Source: a virus
Lineage: Duplodnaviria; Heunggongvirae; Uroviricota; Caudoviricetes
Reading direction: 5' to 3' (one strand)
DNA: 6,255 bases
IMG/VR virus record: IMGVR_UViG_2778261454_000001
Shown: in pieces, positions 1 through 6,255 of the stretch
Layout of the letters: each line of letters starts with the position of its first letter
Position numbering within the stretch: the first letter of the stretch is position 1
The notes under the pieces: model-generated
What the model saw: only the letters and a program-made list of their open reading frames with translations
What the model was told of the DNA's origin: nothing
Databases searched by the model: none
Translations under genes and position numbers: made by a program

Positions 1-1286
<1,286 letters not shown>

Positions 1287-2473: not shown

Positions 2474-2746
2474 ATGGATATTGGTACTATTTTGGCACTT
2501 GTTATTTCTGGTTGTGTATTTGTATATACCATATTTCGTGATAATACAAAAGATACAGATGATCTACTTACTCGTGTTAGTGAAATTGAGACTAAACAGG
2601 CAGTACAGGAATCAAGTATTACTCGTATTGAAACGGATCAAGATAAAATGAGAGATTCACTATCTAAACTAGAAGCACAGATCCATGATTTAGATGTTAA
2701 GATTGAAAAGATTATTACTATTCTTGAACAGAAGCAGAAACAATAA
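2474..2746 (+). CDS. Small membrane-anchored coiled-coil protein (90 aa); candidate lysis accessory (holin / antiholin / i-spanin-like)
   Basis: AAGGA (2459-2463) upstream of the ATG. N-terminal hydrophobic helix IGTILALVISGCVFVYTIF, then a charged heptad-like segment. Convergent with the endolysin and ended by the intrinsic terminator. Confidence 0.6.
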   Translation: MDIGTILALVISGCVFVYTIFRDNTKDTDDLLTRVSEIETKQAVQESSITRIETDQDKMRDSLSKLEAQIHDLDVKIEKIITILEQKQKQ

Positions 2747-2750
2747 GCGA

Positions 2751-2792
2751 AAAAAGGCAAGCTACTGATATAGTAGCTTGCCTTTTGTTTTA
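2751..2792. terminator. Bidirectional rho-independent terminator between convergent genes
   Basis: Perfect 11-bp stem GGCAAGCTACT / AGTAGCTTGCC (2756-2766 / 2772-2782) with 5-nt loop, flanked by AAAAA on one side and TTTTGTTTT on the other, so it is followed by a U-tract on either strand. Confidence 0.8.
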
Positions 2793-3239
2793 TTTGTTAG
2801 TTAATGCGGCAATCATTTGATCTACGCGGTTTGGGGTTTGTTTGTACCAATGGGAATCTTTAGCTTGTTTAATTGCTTCAGGATAGTTCTTTTCCTTAAG
2901 TGCTTTTAACATCTTCTTAAACTTCATAGTACCAGCTAAGCCTAATTGGAAAATCATAATTACCATAAAGTCACGCCAATCATTAGGAAGCCAGATATCA
3001 AGAGTATCTAGGTTATGTTGTGCGATCATTATGTCATGGTCTAATAGTTCTTCTGCCTGTACCTCAGTAATACCGTTTGGATAACTTTCACCATGTGTAA
3101 TTAGATGACCATAACCAATCGTTTGATACCCTAATGAATCAGCATATGGATAAAACCTATCATTTCGATAGTACTTCAATGTTGCTTGATACTCTTTAGT
3201 ACCTTCATATTGTTTTAATCTTGTCTTTAAATCACTCAT
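2790..3239 (-). CDS. Endolysin, T4-lysozyme-like (glycoside hydrolase family 24 muramidase)
   Basis: From the internal ATG (rc of 3237-3239) the protein aligns by eye to T4 lysozyme: QYEG…ADSLGYQTIGYGH (Glu/Asp/Thr catalytic positions conserved), MIFQLGLAGTMKF, and HWYKQTPNR versus T4 SRWYNQTPNR. The track ORF starts 20 codons upstream at a GTG, which I consider less likely. No signal peptide or SAR segment, so it should need a holin. Confidence 0.85.
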   Translation of the reverse strand: MSDLKTRLKQYEGTKEYQATLKYYRNDRFYPYADSLGYQTIGYGHLITHGESYPNGITEVQAEELLDHDIMIAQHNLDTLDIWLPNDWRDFMVIMIFQLGLAGTMKFKKMLKALKEKNYPEAIKQAKDSHWYKQTPNRVDQMIAALTNK

Positions 3240-3242
3240 TAA

Positions 3243-3276
3243 TAAATACCTATAGTTAATTTTATATAGGTATTTA
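3243..3276. promoter_or_regulatory. Perfect 12-bp inverted repeat TAAATACCTATA / TATAGGTATTTA with 10-bp spacer, filling the divergent intergenic region
   Basis: Read directly. Each arm ends 3 nt from a start codon (minus ATG at 3237-3239, plus ATG at 3280-3282), so both genes have nearly identical leaders (TATAGGTATTTA-YTW-ATG). Confidence 0.5.
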
Positions 3277-3279
3277 CTT

Positions 3280-3726
3280 ATGGATATACAGATCCCCACG
3301 GAATGGGAATATACAGAAGATTGGGATAAGCGTACTTTGACTAATGGTGATTACGTAGGGTTTGTTTATCTGTTTCAATTTGAGGATGGTAGTACATACA
3401 TCGGTTCAAAACAGATGTATAAACGTGTTAAAGAGATTAAGAAACTTAAACCTACTTCAGAAAGTAACAATTGGGAAAACTATACAAGTAGTTCAAAGAT
3501 AGTTAATCAAAAGATCACAGATGGTGAAAAGTACTGTAAAACTATTCTCTATGCGTTTCCAACTATGCGTGAAACATTACTAGTAGAATCAATTTTGATA
3601 CTACATGAAATGTTGAAACCCAATTGTTTAAATCTCGCAATGATGACGAAGATCAGATCACCAAATGCTAAAGATAAAAAACATCTTTTAGGCATAGTAC
3701 AAGAGCTATTGGAAATATTGAGGTAA
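3280..3726 (+). CDS. GIY-YIG-type nuclease (148 aa): free-standing homing-endonuclease-like or Endo II-like
   Basis: Motifs in GIY-YIG order and spacing: GFVYLF (GIY-like), 8 aa, STYIGSK (YIG), then a conserved Arg (YKRVKE) and later Glu/Asn (LLVESILI…PNCLN). Short, with no obvious extra DNA-binding domain. Confidence 0.55.
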   Translation: MDIQIPTEWEYTEDWDKRTLTNGDYVGFVYLFQFEDGSTYIGSKQMYKRVKEIKKLKPTSESNNWENYTSSSKIVNQKITDGEKYCKTILYAFPTMRETLLVESILILHEMLKPNCLNLAMMTKIRSPNAKDKKHLLGIVQELLEILR

Positions 3727-4617: not shown

Positions 4618-4907
4618 TAGGTGTAATACTAGAACTGCTATCTAAAGGAATGGACTTCTTTATCAAGAGAAAAACCATTCAAGCAGATGTAGAAAAAACA
4701 AATGCCGAAGGGCAAATAGAAACCAACAAAGAAGAGATTGAAAAGGTATCATTCCATTGGCGTAATGCTCTTGGATTTGTGATCACCCTAATCATCCTCT
4801 ATAACTGGATCATAGTACCAGTACTGGATGCTTTTGGTATTGTGGTTATCCAAGTACCATTAGGACAACTACTGCAAGTACTTCTAATCATGGTTGGTGG
4901 TTCATAA
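4614..4907 (+). CDS. Putative holin (97 aa, 2-3 TM; resembles the 3TM GTA-type holin family)
   Basis: GGGGA (4602-4606) lies 7 nt upstream. Hydrophilic N-terminal part then two clear hydrophobic helices (ALGFVITLIILYNWIIVPVL and FGIVVIQVPLGQLLQVLLIMVGG). The HWRNALGF…LYNWIIVP segment matches my recollection of the W-R-P…G-W…Y-N-F signature of that family; not verified. Confidence 0.55.
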   Translation: MIGVILELLSKGMDFFIKRKTIQADVEKTNAEGQIETNKEEIEKVSFHWRNALGFVITLIILYNWIIVPVLDAFGIVVIQVPLGQLLQVLLIMVGGS

Positions 4908-4934
4908 AAAAAGCCCCATTACGGGGCTTTTTTT
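4906..4934. terminator. Bidirectional rho-independent terminator
   Basis: Stem AGCCCC / GGGGCT (4912-4917 / 4923-4928) with 5-nt loop, flanked by an A6 run and a T7 run. It lies between the stop at 4905-4907 (plus) and the stop at 4936-4938 (minus). Confidence 0.8.
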
Positions 4935-4935
4935 G

Positions 4936-6048
4936 TCAGAGATTAAATTCACTAAAGAGCCAATGTTGTTTGCTTAGTGGAATTACAAAGTTTGTCCCTT
5001 TAGGATCTCTACTACGATTTGGTGTTATAATTCTATCAAATGTCGCGTGATATATAGTATCCATTTTTATTCCTTTGTACAGTAATCCATGTACATATCT
5101 ATTCAAAAATCCAGCTATAATATCTGCTATTTGTATACCAGTACTATCTTTAGAATCTTTGAATATCAATTTTGGGGTTTCAATAACTTTGAAATCACAT
5201 GTAGGGATTTTTGGCATAATATCTACATTGACTGTTTTTATCTCAGAGATACAAAAGTCTAATGTGCTAGCAAATTCGCTAGAGGTATCATGTGTTAATA
5301 CGATGTCGGATAGTTTTCTTTTATGAATTTTATTGAGGCGAGCAATCTGGTTATAGAAACTATGTACGTTAGGCAGTAGTTTTATAACATTTCCATTACT
5401 ATCTAAATCTGGAATAGGTACAAACCATTTAATAGCTACATCTGCTGAGTATCTACTTTTTCTGTATTCAAATTCTTGTAAAGTTTTATCGAACATTCTG
5501 CATGTGCCGCCATTATCATCTAGTGGATTACTTTCACTAGAAAAGAATTCTTTCAGGCTCTCAATACATATGTTCAACTTTTCTTCGGATGGGTCTTTAC
5601 ATAACTCAGAGAATGTAGTGAAACAAATTTCTGGTGCAAATGTACTTATTATGTCTACCAATATGTTTCTTACTAACAGCAATTCATTGCTGTCTTCATT
5701 CTCCATTGCAGGTACTATAAGTTGATTTACTATAGAAACTGCTACGTTACACTTTTTATCCATTACTTCACATACTAAAGTGTATTTTTCATCAATTACG
5801 AAATCAACTAATTCGTATACTAGTTCTGGATTTTTAATATAATAATCTTGGGATTTCAGTTCAATTGATTCATCTATGCCGTGTCTTTTCTTCAAGGCAC
5901 GTACAAAACCTTTCATTCTACTAATTTTCCCTTCTGCTACTCCCACGCATGAATGAGTGAAAAGGGGCTGATTAGCAAATCCCATGTCATTTTTTTTATT
6001 AATCAAATCACCTGTGTTACCACTTTCATCTAAGAAATATTCCATCAT
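4936..6048 (-). CDS. DUF3800-like protein (about 370 aa), possible RNase-H-like-fold enzyme
   Basis: N-terminal MMEYFLDESGNTGD and C-terminal GIQIADIIAGFLNR match the DESG and Q-x-A-D signatures I recall for DUF3800. The track ORF begins at a TTG (6058-6060); I place the start at ATG rc(6046-6048), with GGGA about 9 nt upstream on the minus strand. Confidence 0.65.
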   Translation of the reverse strand: MMEYFLDESGNTGDLINKKNDMGFANQPLFTHSCVGVAEGKISRMKGFVRALKKRHGIDESIELKSQDYYIKNPELVYELVDFVIDEKYTLVCEVMDKKCNVAVSIVNQLIVPAMENEDSNELLLVRNILVDIISTFAPEICFTTFSELCKDPSEEKLNICIESLKEFFSSESNPLDDNGGTCRMFDKTLQEFEYRKSRYSADVAIKWFVPIPDLDSNGNVIKLLPNVHSFYNQIARLNKIHKRKLSDIVLTHDTSSEFASTLDFCISEIKTVNVDIMPKIPTCDFKVIETPKLIFKDSKDSTGIQIADIIAGFLNRYVHGLLYKGIKMDTIYHATFDRIITPNRSRDPKGTNFVIPLSKQHWLFSEFNL

Positions 6049-6243
6049 TACCAATCCCAATCTACAGTAGTGTCCAATCCTCTCAGATTCGTATGTTCAG
6101 TACGTGTAGCCTGTAGAACGGTTTCACCAGTGGCGATAGAAACTATATCAAATGACTCTATTTCAGTTTGTCCAAGAGTGATCTTACCCAGCAATAGTGG
6201 ACACGCGGCTAAGTGAGTAAACTCTCAGTCAGAGGTGACTCAC

Positions 6244-6255
6244 ATGACAAAAACA
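6244..6255 (+). CDS. Start of a plus-strand gene running off the window (MTKT…)
   Basis: ATG 6244 is preceded by AGAGGTGA (6231-6238) at typical Shine-Dalgarno spacing. Only 4 codons are visible. Confidence 0.3.

Follow-up and report, generated by a model that had tools for sequence, protein, structure and literature searches.

The window, which is the whole 6,255-nt stretch of DNA analysed here, carries a DUF3800 gene on its minus strand (Table 1). The corresponding minus-strand ORF extends over 4936..6060 and counts 374 aa from a TTG codon. Since the homologues start with M-x-Y-[YF]-L-D-E-S-G, however, translation likely begins at the ATG at 6048 or at 6045, not at this TTG (6060). The first-pass annotation had proposed a DUF3800-like gene of about 370 aa from the sequence alone, and both points were upheld: the product matches Pfam DUF3800 (PF12686) with 50.7 bits (cutoff 21; E = 4.2e-13), over profile positions 2–149 of 149, and has 66 full-length homologues, a combination far beyond chance. 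One of these homologues is 100% identical and is named by NCBI as DUF3800 domain-containing protein [Escherichia coli].

Table 1. Features of the DUF3800 locus and of the ends of the window (positions refer to the window)
Feature	Position	Strand	Remarks
IS3 right terminus, second copy	1..122	+	same orientation as the other copy; truncates the 1100-aa tail tip fibre gene
Bidirectional intrinsic terminator hairpin	4904..4936	.	from folding; GCCCC/GGGGC stem flanked by A and T runs
DUF3800 coding sequence	4936..6048	-	370 aa from ATG at 6048; second ATG at 6045; stop 4936-4938
Motif QIADIIAG	5110..5133	-	helix residues 303-324; Q306, D309 invariant
H253-D254	5287..5292	-	C-terminal end of strand residues 249-254; both invariant
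All-helical insertion, ~150 aa	5311..5757	-	residues 98-246, within the RNase H core; subfamily-specific
Motif EVMDK	5755..5769	-	end of strand residues 90-97; E94, K98 invariant; D97 at least 90% conserved
Motif FLDESGNTGD	6007..6036	-	strand beta-1; D7, E8, S9, G10, G13, D14 invariant
3' remnant of the 69-aa gene	6048..6178	-	42 codons and stop; truncated by IS3
IS3 left terminus	6179..6255	+	100% identity over 77 nt to annotated IS3; start of orfA at 6245

The DUF3800 gene is convergent with a holin gene, and the stop codons of the two are separated by a hairpin that folds stably on both strands (−19.1 and −16.9 kcal/mol, z-scores −4.7 and −3.4), in agreement with the bidirectional terminator initially noted beside the gene. 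Sub-threshold Rfam matches to Thr_leader on both strands turned out to be merely this hairpin. The upstream flank is GC-richer than the gene, as had been claimed (42–46% versus 32%), but is not intergenic, being made up of a truncated gene and the end of an IS3 transcribed away from DUF3800. Of the truncated gene, 69 aa long when complete, the last 42 codons (6051–6178) are left, and its TAA stop and the start codon of DUF3800 overlap as TAATG. Comparison of E. coli with Klebsiella (12 synonymous versus 5 non-synonymous codon changes) indicates that the 69-aa gene evolves as coding sequence; it has no Pfam match, and its one marginal PADLOC match was regarded as noise.

The original description of the gene as standing alone inside a structural/lysis region did not survive comparison with intact loci. 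In those of E. coli and Klebsiella, DUF3800 is the outermost gene of the prophage, at its att-proximal end, and adjoins pgl/ybhA (the attachment site being ybhA). The gene is also not strictly stand-alone, because it is the last of a co-directional block composed of a HAD phosphatase gene, the 69-aa gene and DUF3800. The same placement beside lysis genes was found in K. aerogenes and, at a different integration site, in Citrobacter.

In the window, IS3 cut this block within the 69-aa gene, 130 bp upstream of the DUF3800 ATG, and the native promoter was probably lost. A consensus scan detected no promoter-like site between IS3 and the start codon, nor, in intact loci, between the HAD gene and DUF3800. 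The gene could be a silent passenger in this strain, IS3 having removed both its promoter and its translational coupling; it would then be functionless here, irrespective of the role of the family elsewhere. The prophage is probably defective, its tail fibre gene being cut by the second IS3, and this points in the same direction. Against this, the ORF is intact and its protein is identical to that of undisrupted loci (1 mismatch in 1243 nt), while the consensus scan is crude and outward promoters can arise at IS ends. We consider silence of the gene in this strain possible, if somewhat doubtful.

The slot that the gene occupies is variable: E. coli G3/10 carries there an unrelated 235-aa gene and strain MG48 the 69-aa gene without DUF3800. 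The presence of other genes at the same site in related prophages bears out the moron-like accessory character that had been suggested. The 69-aa gene was considered as a partner or antitoxin and rejected, being absent from a 62%-identity homologue and from more distant ones and present without DUF3800 in MG48. Three cargo proteins of sister prophages have no Pfam match, and together with the neighbour in the P2 hotspot (see below) and a 1486-aa Sphingopyxis neighbour they make five proteins without a PADLOC match. The DUF3800 gene itself appears to be rare in E. coli, since megablast against 5,426 complete E. coli genomes yielded no match. No description of the ybhA-edge slot as a hotspot was found in the literature searched.

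A comparable slot is known from P2, in which the gpA–gpQ interval (old/tin locus) is a documented defence hotspot (PMC9122126, PMC13586616). DUF3800 genes account for 16 entries in the P2 hotspot table of PMC9122126, and a Proteus homologue, 37% identical, lies in a P2-like prophage, with the portal gene gpQ on one side and the replication gene on the other. Like P2 hotspot cargo, the gene studied here occupies a variable att- or cos-proximal slot in which sister prophages have alternative genes; the host prophage, however, is not P2-like, being low in GC, equipped with a lambda-J-like tail tip fibre and integrated at ybhA. Other homologues adjoin OLD-TOPRIM/AAA_15, DUF4365 and HEPN genes, one adjoins an Argonaute-associated nuclease gene, and one lies within a his operon together with Fic/RhuM, Bro-N and DUF2726 genes. 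The 115 nearest neighbours at 33 non-redundant loci, surveyed with crude ORF calling and no background control and hence to be read descriptively, not as statistical enrichment, contain no conserved partner; they include TIR, NACHT, RES/Xre, AbiJ, GajB-like UvrD, Cas1/Cas7, YobI, integrase and transposase genes. Among them cas genes are sporadic (Cas1 and Cas7 with one member each by Pfam, two by the PADLOC Cas1 models). That homologues occur in the P2 hotspot and in islands of defence or mobile-element genes further supports the accessory character of the gene, and in this descriptive sense the variable cargo slot and the defence islands are of the kind expected for an anti-phage defence gene.

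The mobile-element side of these neighbourhoods also fits a selfish or addictive nuclease cassette, persisting by moving or by harming cells that lose it and conferring no immunity on the host. The block formed by a ybhA fragment, the HAD gene, the 69-aa gene and DUF3800 has 97% nucleotide identity between E. coli and Mangrovibacter (99% for the DUF3800 protein), in contrast to the diverged phage DNA next to it; one homologue stands as a lone inserted gene in a his operon; 16 loci in several alphaproteobacterial genera are at least 80% identical; and the neighbours include transposases, integrases, ParB and RES/Xre toxin–antitoxin genes. Such a cassette is nevertheless unlikely: no conserved antitoxin-like partner was found, neither a target-site signature nor terminal repeats were seen around the gene, and no homing endonuclease is known to have an RNase H2-like fold.

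The two sequence motifs initially reported, FLDESGNTG near the N-terminus and QIADIIAG toward the C-terminus, are present (Table 1), and the acidic residue at the end of the first strand and the Asp of the C-terminal helix that had been pointed out correspond to conserved positions (D7/E8 and D309). Across 49 sequences, down to 22% identity, nine residues never vary (D7, E8, D14, E94, K98, H253, D254, Q306 and D309). QxxD is the motif that defines DUF3800 and an N-terminal DE motif is also part of the definition (PMC7736814); here they are represented by D7-E8 and Q306-x-x-D309. The E94/D97 region is a candidate for the second acidic position of the active site. While the Pfam domain model has 149 positions, the protein has about 370 residues, and the helical insertion of about 150 aa together with a C-terminal extension of about 45 aa marks a subfamily. 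The insertion had no informative structural match.

An AF2 model of the protein (pLDDT 92.7, pTM 0.91) bears out the RNase H-like fold proposed earlier and specifies it as type 2 RNase H-like, the best structural matches being RNase HII, H2A and HIII. As in these enzymes, an adjacent D-E pair on beta-1 is followed by a glycine-rich loop (DESGNTGD versus DEVGRGP), so that the motif FLDESGNTGD parallels GVDEVGRGP of RNase HII. D7/E8 on beta-1 match the RNase HII D-E pair, and the conserved D97 or E94, D254 and D309 sit at strand ends or on a helix, which makes them candidates for the rest of a DEDD catalytic tetrad. The protein is accordingly predicted from the model to be a nuclease of RNase HII-like fold. 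Neither the fold prediction nor the family assignment is new, an RNase H fold having already been proposed for DUF3800 (PMC7736814, PMC10910872, PMC12669027).

Several features set the protein apart from type 2 RNases H. Identity is only 10–13%; the junction-sensing GRG motif of RNase HII is absent in its literal form, the loop reading S-G-N-T-G-D; H253/D254 and Q306/D309 are extra invariant residues; the helical insertion is missing from RNase HII; and type 2 RNase H is a housekeeping gene, whereas the DUF3800 gene is accessory and carried on mobile elements. There was no Pfam match to RNase_HII at E ≤ 0.1 and no meaningful match in PDB by sequence or by profile. The likeness to RnhB is structural only, since hhalign, run with the family alignment and E. 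coli RnhB, gave a probability of 0.1%, i.e. no profile similarity, and at the sequence level the protein falls outside type 2 RNase H (RNase_HII). In the BFVD viral fold search the sole match was an uncultured siphovirus protein that also belongs to DUF3800 (E = 7.6e-4).

The resemblance raises the question of a genuine RNase H serving phage DNA metabolism, in primer removal, ribonucleotide excision or R-loop resolution. It would agree with the closest structures and with the DE-x-G motif on beta-1. Apart from the sequence and insertion differences just described, the location of the gene argues against it: it is not part of a replication module but lies past the lysis genes at the edge of the prophage, on the opposite strand, and it is dispensable, judging from the sister prophages that carry other genes at the same site. 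We regard this role as very unlikely.

The gene was also compared with described systems that contain DUF3800. The effector of type VII retrons (DefenseFinder model Retron_VII_2; Mestre et al. 2020, PMC7736814) belongs to the same Pfam family, and both proteins are predicted to act as RNase H2-like effectors in an anti-phage setting; the type VII proteins, however, lack the Q of QxxD (PMC7736814), whereas Q306 is invariant here. No retron reverse transcriptase was present among the window ORFs scanned or in the Pfam-annotated homologous loci, which rules out a retron accessory, and there was no Rfam match to msr/msd or another ncRNA in the window or in the homologous loci scanned. In CRISPR loci of Cas12a2, Cas12a3 and type VI-F, accessory TPR-DUF3800 proteins share the DUF3800 domain, which is described there as an RNase H fold with catalytic rearrangement (PMC10910872, PMC12669027, bioRxiv 10.64898/2026.01.16.699850). 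The protein studied here is without a TPR domain (Pfam), and the window contains phage genes and IS3 only, with neither cas genes nor a CRISPR array; lacking Cas gene and TPR domain, the gene is not a CRISPR accessory. DUF3800 genes are moreover associated with many ncRNA motifs (DUF3800-I to XI, drum and skipping-rope; PMC5737381), of which none had an Rfam match in the window at E ≤ 1 or in 14 homologous loci at gathering score.

Among PADLOC candidates, PDC-S51 (a single gene, with a profile of similar length, 376 positions) and PDC-M04A gave weak local matches (E = 2.6e-4 and 8e-5, respectively), and one homologue matches PDC-S51 at 1.3e-6. These matches span only 28–95 residues, and the protein therefore belongs to a related but distinct DUF3800 subfamily; like the gene studied here, both are unvalidated candidates put forward from genomic context. 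Literature searches on PF12686, PDC-S51 and RNase H-like single-gene defence returned no functional study, and in the literature searched no experiment ties any DUF3800 protein to a phenotype.

Being phage-borne, the gene might act in counter-defence and, at induction or in the course of infection, destroy a nucleic acid of host immunity, for example retron msDNA, guide RNAs or primed RNA:DNA intermediates. Within this prophage lineage it is retained down to 47% identity, a divergence about that of the late genes, and such retention is also compatible with a gene that serves the phage itself; RNA:DNA hybrids, as in retron msDNA, are substrates of RNase H-type enzymes, and the ncRNA motifs tied to DUF3800 genes (PMC5737381) are in line with this. 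Set against it are related prophages that do without the gene, homologues in chromosomal islands and in a his operon with no phage around, and the failure of tblastn to find a homologue in 50,697 sequenced phage records. Elsewhere the family is on the defence side, as the retron type VII effector and the Cas12a2/Cas13 accessory (PMC7736814, PMC10910872, PMC12669027). In addition, the gene opposes the late operon and runs in the same direction as a housekeeping-type gene at the att site, an orientation that suggests expression in the lysogen. Counter-defence therefore seems to us rather improbable, and we infer that defence is to be favoured over anti-defence.

We thus consider the gene a reasonable candidate for anti-phage defence. 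More precisely, we give about an even chance to its encoding a single-polypeptide DUF3800 nuclease, carried as accessory prophage cargo and most likely protecting the lysogen from other phages. The protein would be a metal-dependent nuclease with a type 2 RNase H-like core contributing D7/E8 (beta-1), E94/D97, H253/D254 and Q306/D309, into which the helical domain specific to the subfamily would be inserted; its acidic character (pI 5.5) counts against this reading. The gene is cargo in a family of low-GC enterobacterial prophages, whose att-proximal end offers a slot of variable content. In intact prophages it is co-directional, and probably co-transcribed, with the phage-borne ybhA-like phosphatase gene and the 69-aa gene, and would therefore be expressed in the lysogen. 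The nuclease would cleave a nucleic-acid structure made during infection by other phages, such as an RNA:DNA hybrid, an RNA–DNA junction or another structured substrate, presumably with no need for a dedicated partner protein.

DUF3800 is widespread and recurs beside retrons, CRISPR effectors and at least eleven different structured RNAs. The prophage protein is short and partner-free and occurs in tractable hosts (E. coli, Klebsiella), which makes it a convenient entry for phage-challenge experiments and for nuclease work on RNA:DNA substrates. If the defence function is true, it would add a single-gene RNase H2-like system and help to explain what DUF3800 does at loci of type VII retrons and of Cas12a2/Cas13; if not, a selfish or phage-internal role would be indicated. 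More tentatively, the whole ~370-aa subfamily may constitute an undescribed single-gene anti-phage system with an RNase H2/PIWI-like effector and the inserted helical domain as sensor or regulator, although we would sooner expect otherwise. In its boldest version, suggested by the kinship of the fold to PIWI and by the large number of ncRNA motifs associated with DUF3800 genes, the nuclease would be guided by nucleic acid or would recognise a specific RNA:DNA structure of invading phages. The subfamily comprises roughly 300 clusters at 50% identity and ranges across Proteobacteria, with a few members in other bacterial and in archaeal (Thermococcaceae) genomes.

The minus-strand open reading frame that the first-pass annotation had placed in the DUF3800 family is present in the six-frame ORF list, contains both motifs quoted for it (FLDESGNTGD and QIADIIAG) and scores 50.7 bits against Pfam DUF3800 (PF12686; cutoff 21). 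Since its homologues begin with M-x-Y-[YF]-L-D-E-S-G, the real start is ATG 6048 or ATG 6045; the former gives a 370-aa protein and is also called in public records. A long ORF at 32% GC is no chance event, as the searches bear out: 66 full-length relatives were found among 5.8 billion proteins, one of them 100% identical and named 'DUF3800 domain-containing protein [Escherichia coli]' at NCBI. The bidirectional terminator reported beside the gene is real; the hairpin, placed between the holin and DUF3800 stops, folds on both strands (-19.1 and -16.9 kcal/mol).

In the literature searched, DUF3800 is treated as a predicted nuclease without established function. The DUF3800 component of type VII retrons was modelled on RNase H2 (PMC7736814), Cas12a2-linked TPR-DUF3800 proteins were described as having an 'RNase H fold with a catalytic rearrangement' (PMC10910872), DUF3800 is listed as an 'RNase H fold nuclease' accessory of V-A2 and VI-F loci (PMC12669027) and eleven unrelated RNA motifs were associated with it (PMC5737381). 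These contexts were ruled out here: the window and the intact loci have no reverse transcriptase or Cas gene, the protein lacks a TPR domain, and scans of the window and of 14 homologous loci found none of the RNA motifs. The protein's own PADLOC matches (PDC-M04A and PDC-S51) are weak and partial. Earlier papers and databases thus already contain the family assignment, the proposal of an RNase H fold, a general connection of DUF3800 with defence and the annotation of the identical protein; what is added for this subfamily (the ~370-aa type) is a specific type 2 RNase H match of the predicted structure, together with its helical insertion.

Sequence and profile methods revealed no RNase H-type likeness, and a parallel with RNase HII is visible in the beta-1 motif (YFLDESGNTGDL against VAGVDEVGRGPL). 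Residues D7, E8, S9, G10, G13, D14, E94, K98, H253, D254, S299, Q306 and D309 are invariant across homologues down to 22% identity, and D97 is conserved in at least 90% of them. The AF2 model places the conserved residues in helix 303-324 and where strands 2-9, 90-97 and 249-254 reach their C-terminal ends, the kind of position in which RNase H-type enzymes have their carboxylates; the exact catalytic tetrad is an inference. Among 1.84 billion cluster representatives, a profile search gave 300 clusters at E <= 1e-30, most of them ~340-410 aa long and matched over nearly their full length, which form a coherent subfamily of moderate size. In Psychromonas, a subfamily member has a second DUF3800 gene in tandem (Pfam 2.8e-10). 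Sixteen loci (L034-L047, L054, L085, L089) from Bradyrhizobium, Afipia, Xanthobacter, Bosea and one Sphingomonas carry DUF3800 proteins at least 80% identical, which suggests that a mobile element has spread them recently.

The region upstream of the gene had been described as atypical, GC-richer and intergenic. It is GC-richer (42-46% vs 32%), but we correct its nature to a truncated gene and IS3. One IS3 copy cuts a conserved 69-aa gene (MTEEQFERDYPRDQ...TTVDWDW) whose TAA stop and the ATG of DUF3800 overlap in the sequence TAATG, and a second copy truncates the 1100-aa tail tip fibre gene; the 6,056 bp of prophage DNA that they bracket match undisrupted prophage loci of E. coli at 99.8% identity. 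The two copies could have inserted independently, could form a composite-transposon-like unit or could serve as a substrate for deletion mediated by IS3. In the sister prophage of E. coli G3/10, IS3 likewise lies immediately upstream of the tail tip fibre gene, adjoining a terminase gene fragment, so this prophage family has been struck by IS3 more than once. The 69-aa gene is a real coding sequence (E. coli and Klebsiella copies differ by 12 synonymous and 5 non-synonymous codon changes); a Pfam scan gave no match and PADLOC only a marginal one. It was ruled out as a dedicated DUF3800 partner, being present without DUF3800 in E. coli MG48 and missing beside the 62%-identical and more distant homologues.

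Coordinates of features in the window and in related loci (locus-own numbering)
Feature	Sequence	Position	Strand	Remarks
IS3 right end	window	1-122		second copy, same orientation as 6179-6255
Spanin-like gene	window	2474-2746	+	
Second hairpin, AAGGCAAGCTA...TAGCTTGCCTT	window	2754-2790		found only as sub-threshold RefA9 match
Lysozyme ORF	window	2790-3299	-	169 aa from GTG; mechanical call
SegE-like GIY-YIG gene	window	3280-3726	+	Pfam 1.1e-15; between lysozyme and late genes
Terminator hairpin	window	4904-4936		
DUF3800 ORF	window	4936-6060	-	374 aa from TTG
QIADIIAG	window	5110-5133	-	
FLDESGNTGD	window	6007-6036	-	
69-aa gene, last 42 codons	window	6051-6178		6048-6178 including stop overlap
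IS3 left terminus	window	6179-6255		includes orfA start; 100% identity over 77 nt to annotated IS3
ybhA 5' fragment/HAD region	L003	8555-9767		
ybhA 5' fragment/HAD region	L095	8456-9668		
ybhA 5' fragment/HAD region	L096	8042-9257		
69-aa gene	L003	9792-10001		intact
69-aa gene	L095	8208-8417		E. coli MG48, without DUF3800
IS3	L096	660-1822		E. coli G3/10
DUF3800 tandem	L021	900-1994, 2098-3270		Psychromonas
1486-aa ORF	L018	3548-8008		Sphingopyxis
his operon with DUF3800	L016	4665-13560		Pasteurella

Intact E. coli and Klebsiella loci share one gene order. On one strand, host pgl is followed by the remaining 5' fragment of ybhA, then by the phage's own full-length ybhA-like HAD phosphatase gene, the 69-aa gene and DUF3800. 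The genes converging on this block are those of the 3TM holin, two unknown ones, and those of the SegE-like GIY-YIG protein, lysozyme, the spanin-like protein, DUF8377 and the tail tip fibre. This order makes DUF3800 the outermost prophage gene at the ybhA integration site, and not, as first annotated, one placed inside a structural/lysis region. Integration leaves ~73 codons of host ybhA, and the prophage's own HAD (pyridoxal phosphatase) gene apparently replaces the disrupted one. The moron-like character proposed for DUF3800 was upheld: different cargo is found at this one position, which marks it as an accessory slot. In complete RefSeq E. coli genomes this gene was not found at megablast sensitivity; two of them, G3/10 and MG48, have sister prophages at the same site, the former with an unrelated 235-aa gene between HAD gene and holin, the latter with the HAD gene and the 69-aa homologue followed by a 259-aa gene, while Klebsiella carries DUF3800 plus an additional 261-aa gene. 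This exchange of cargo at the end of the prophage family nearest ybhA is also new here. The RNase H2-like fold could also be that of a genuine phage RNase H serving replication; since sister prophages carry other genes instead, we consider this quite improbable.

K. aerogenes (62% identity) retains DUF3800 beside the lysis genes, as does Citrobacter (47% identity), where the integration site differs, and the gene is at least as conserved as the adjacent late genes (47-86% vs 37-61%). In Mangrovibacter, the block from the ybhA fragment through HAD, 69-aa and DUF3800 genes to the terminator is 97% identical in nucleotides to E. coli (DUF3800 protein, 99%) and the phage DNA outside it is diverged, which indicates a recent cassette exchange. 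The ybhA fragment already lies within this block, which is odd if it is host-derived DNA. A selfish or addictive mobile cassette might behave in this way, a reading that we hold to be unlikely.

The surroundings of remoter homologues speak for a role in defence. In a P2-like prophage of Proteus, a 37%-identical homologue is flanked by portal gpQ and the replication gene, the documented P2 defence hotspot (PMC9122126, PMC13586616) in whose table DUF3800 genes are listed 16 times (PMC9122126); the presence of this subfamily there is a further addition of our analysis. The Sphingopyxis homologue sits amid OLD-TOPRIM/AAA_15, DUF4365, SEC-C ATPase and HEPN genes, another adjoins an Argonaute-associated nuclease gene (PADLOC Aga_Nuclease, 8e-76) and the Acinetobacter homologue is in an integrase and tRNA island. 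In Sphingopyxis, a 1486-aa ORF that matches nothing in Pfam or PADLOC shares 8 nt with the start of DUF3800 and could be a lineage-specific partner in a defence island. In Pasteurella, the homologue belongs to a set of foreign genes inserted in a his operon, which is interrupted by Fic/RhuM, DUF3800, Bro-N, an unknown 217-aa gene and DUF2726, an unusual accessory mosaic within a biosynthetic operon. Around 33 non-redundant loci, the 115 nearest ORFs match 104 different Pfam families without a recurrent partner, among them TIR, NACHT, RES with Xre antitoxin, AbiJ, GajB-like UvrD, Cas1/Cas7, YobI, ParB, integrases and transposases; the survey, with crude ORF calling and no background control, is descriptive only. 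The enzyme might instead be a phage counter-defence protein, which seems to us rather unlikely.

We propose a single-protein, metal-dependent RNase H2-like nuclease that would be expressed from the prophage in the lysogen and would limit superinfection by other phages through cleavage of a nucleic-acid structure that these produce, with the helical insertion serving substrate selection or regulation; we regard this proposal as evenly balanced between right and wrong. The analysis shows the fold, the residue conservation and the cargo behaviour, and from these we infer the activity, the substrate and the phenotype. Transcription would probably begin at the ybhA/HAD promoter: a promoter-like site is present upstream of the ybhA fragment, and a scan of the interval between HAD gene and DUF3800 found none. 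Independently of all these readings, the window copy may be silent, as IS3 stands between the gene and any upstream promoter, with its own transcription leading away from the gene. The gene is a good and cheap candidate for defence assays, though no surprise to a specialist.

Some minor observations concern the lysis region. The start of the SegE-like gene overlaps the divergent lysozyme ORF; the gene is kept in all sister prophages examined (42-49% identity) and so looks more domesticated than a recently mobile homing endonuclease. Lysozyme in homologous loci has 149 aa and begins MSDLKTRLKQ, and its true start is therefore probably an internal ATG near 3239. The second hairpin, between the convergent spanin-like and lysozyme genes, is probably another bidirectional terminator.
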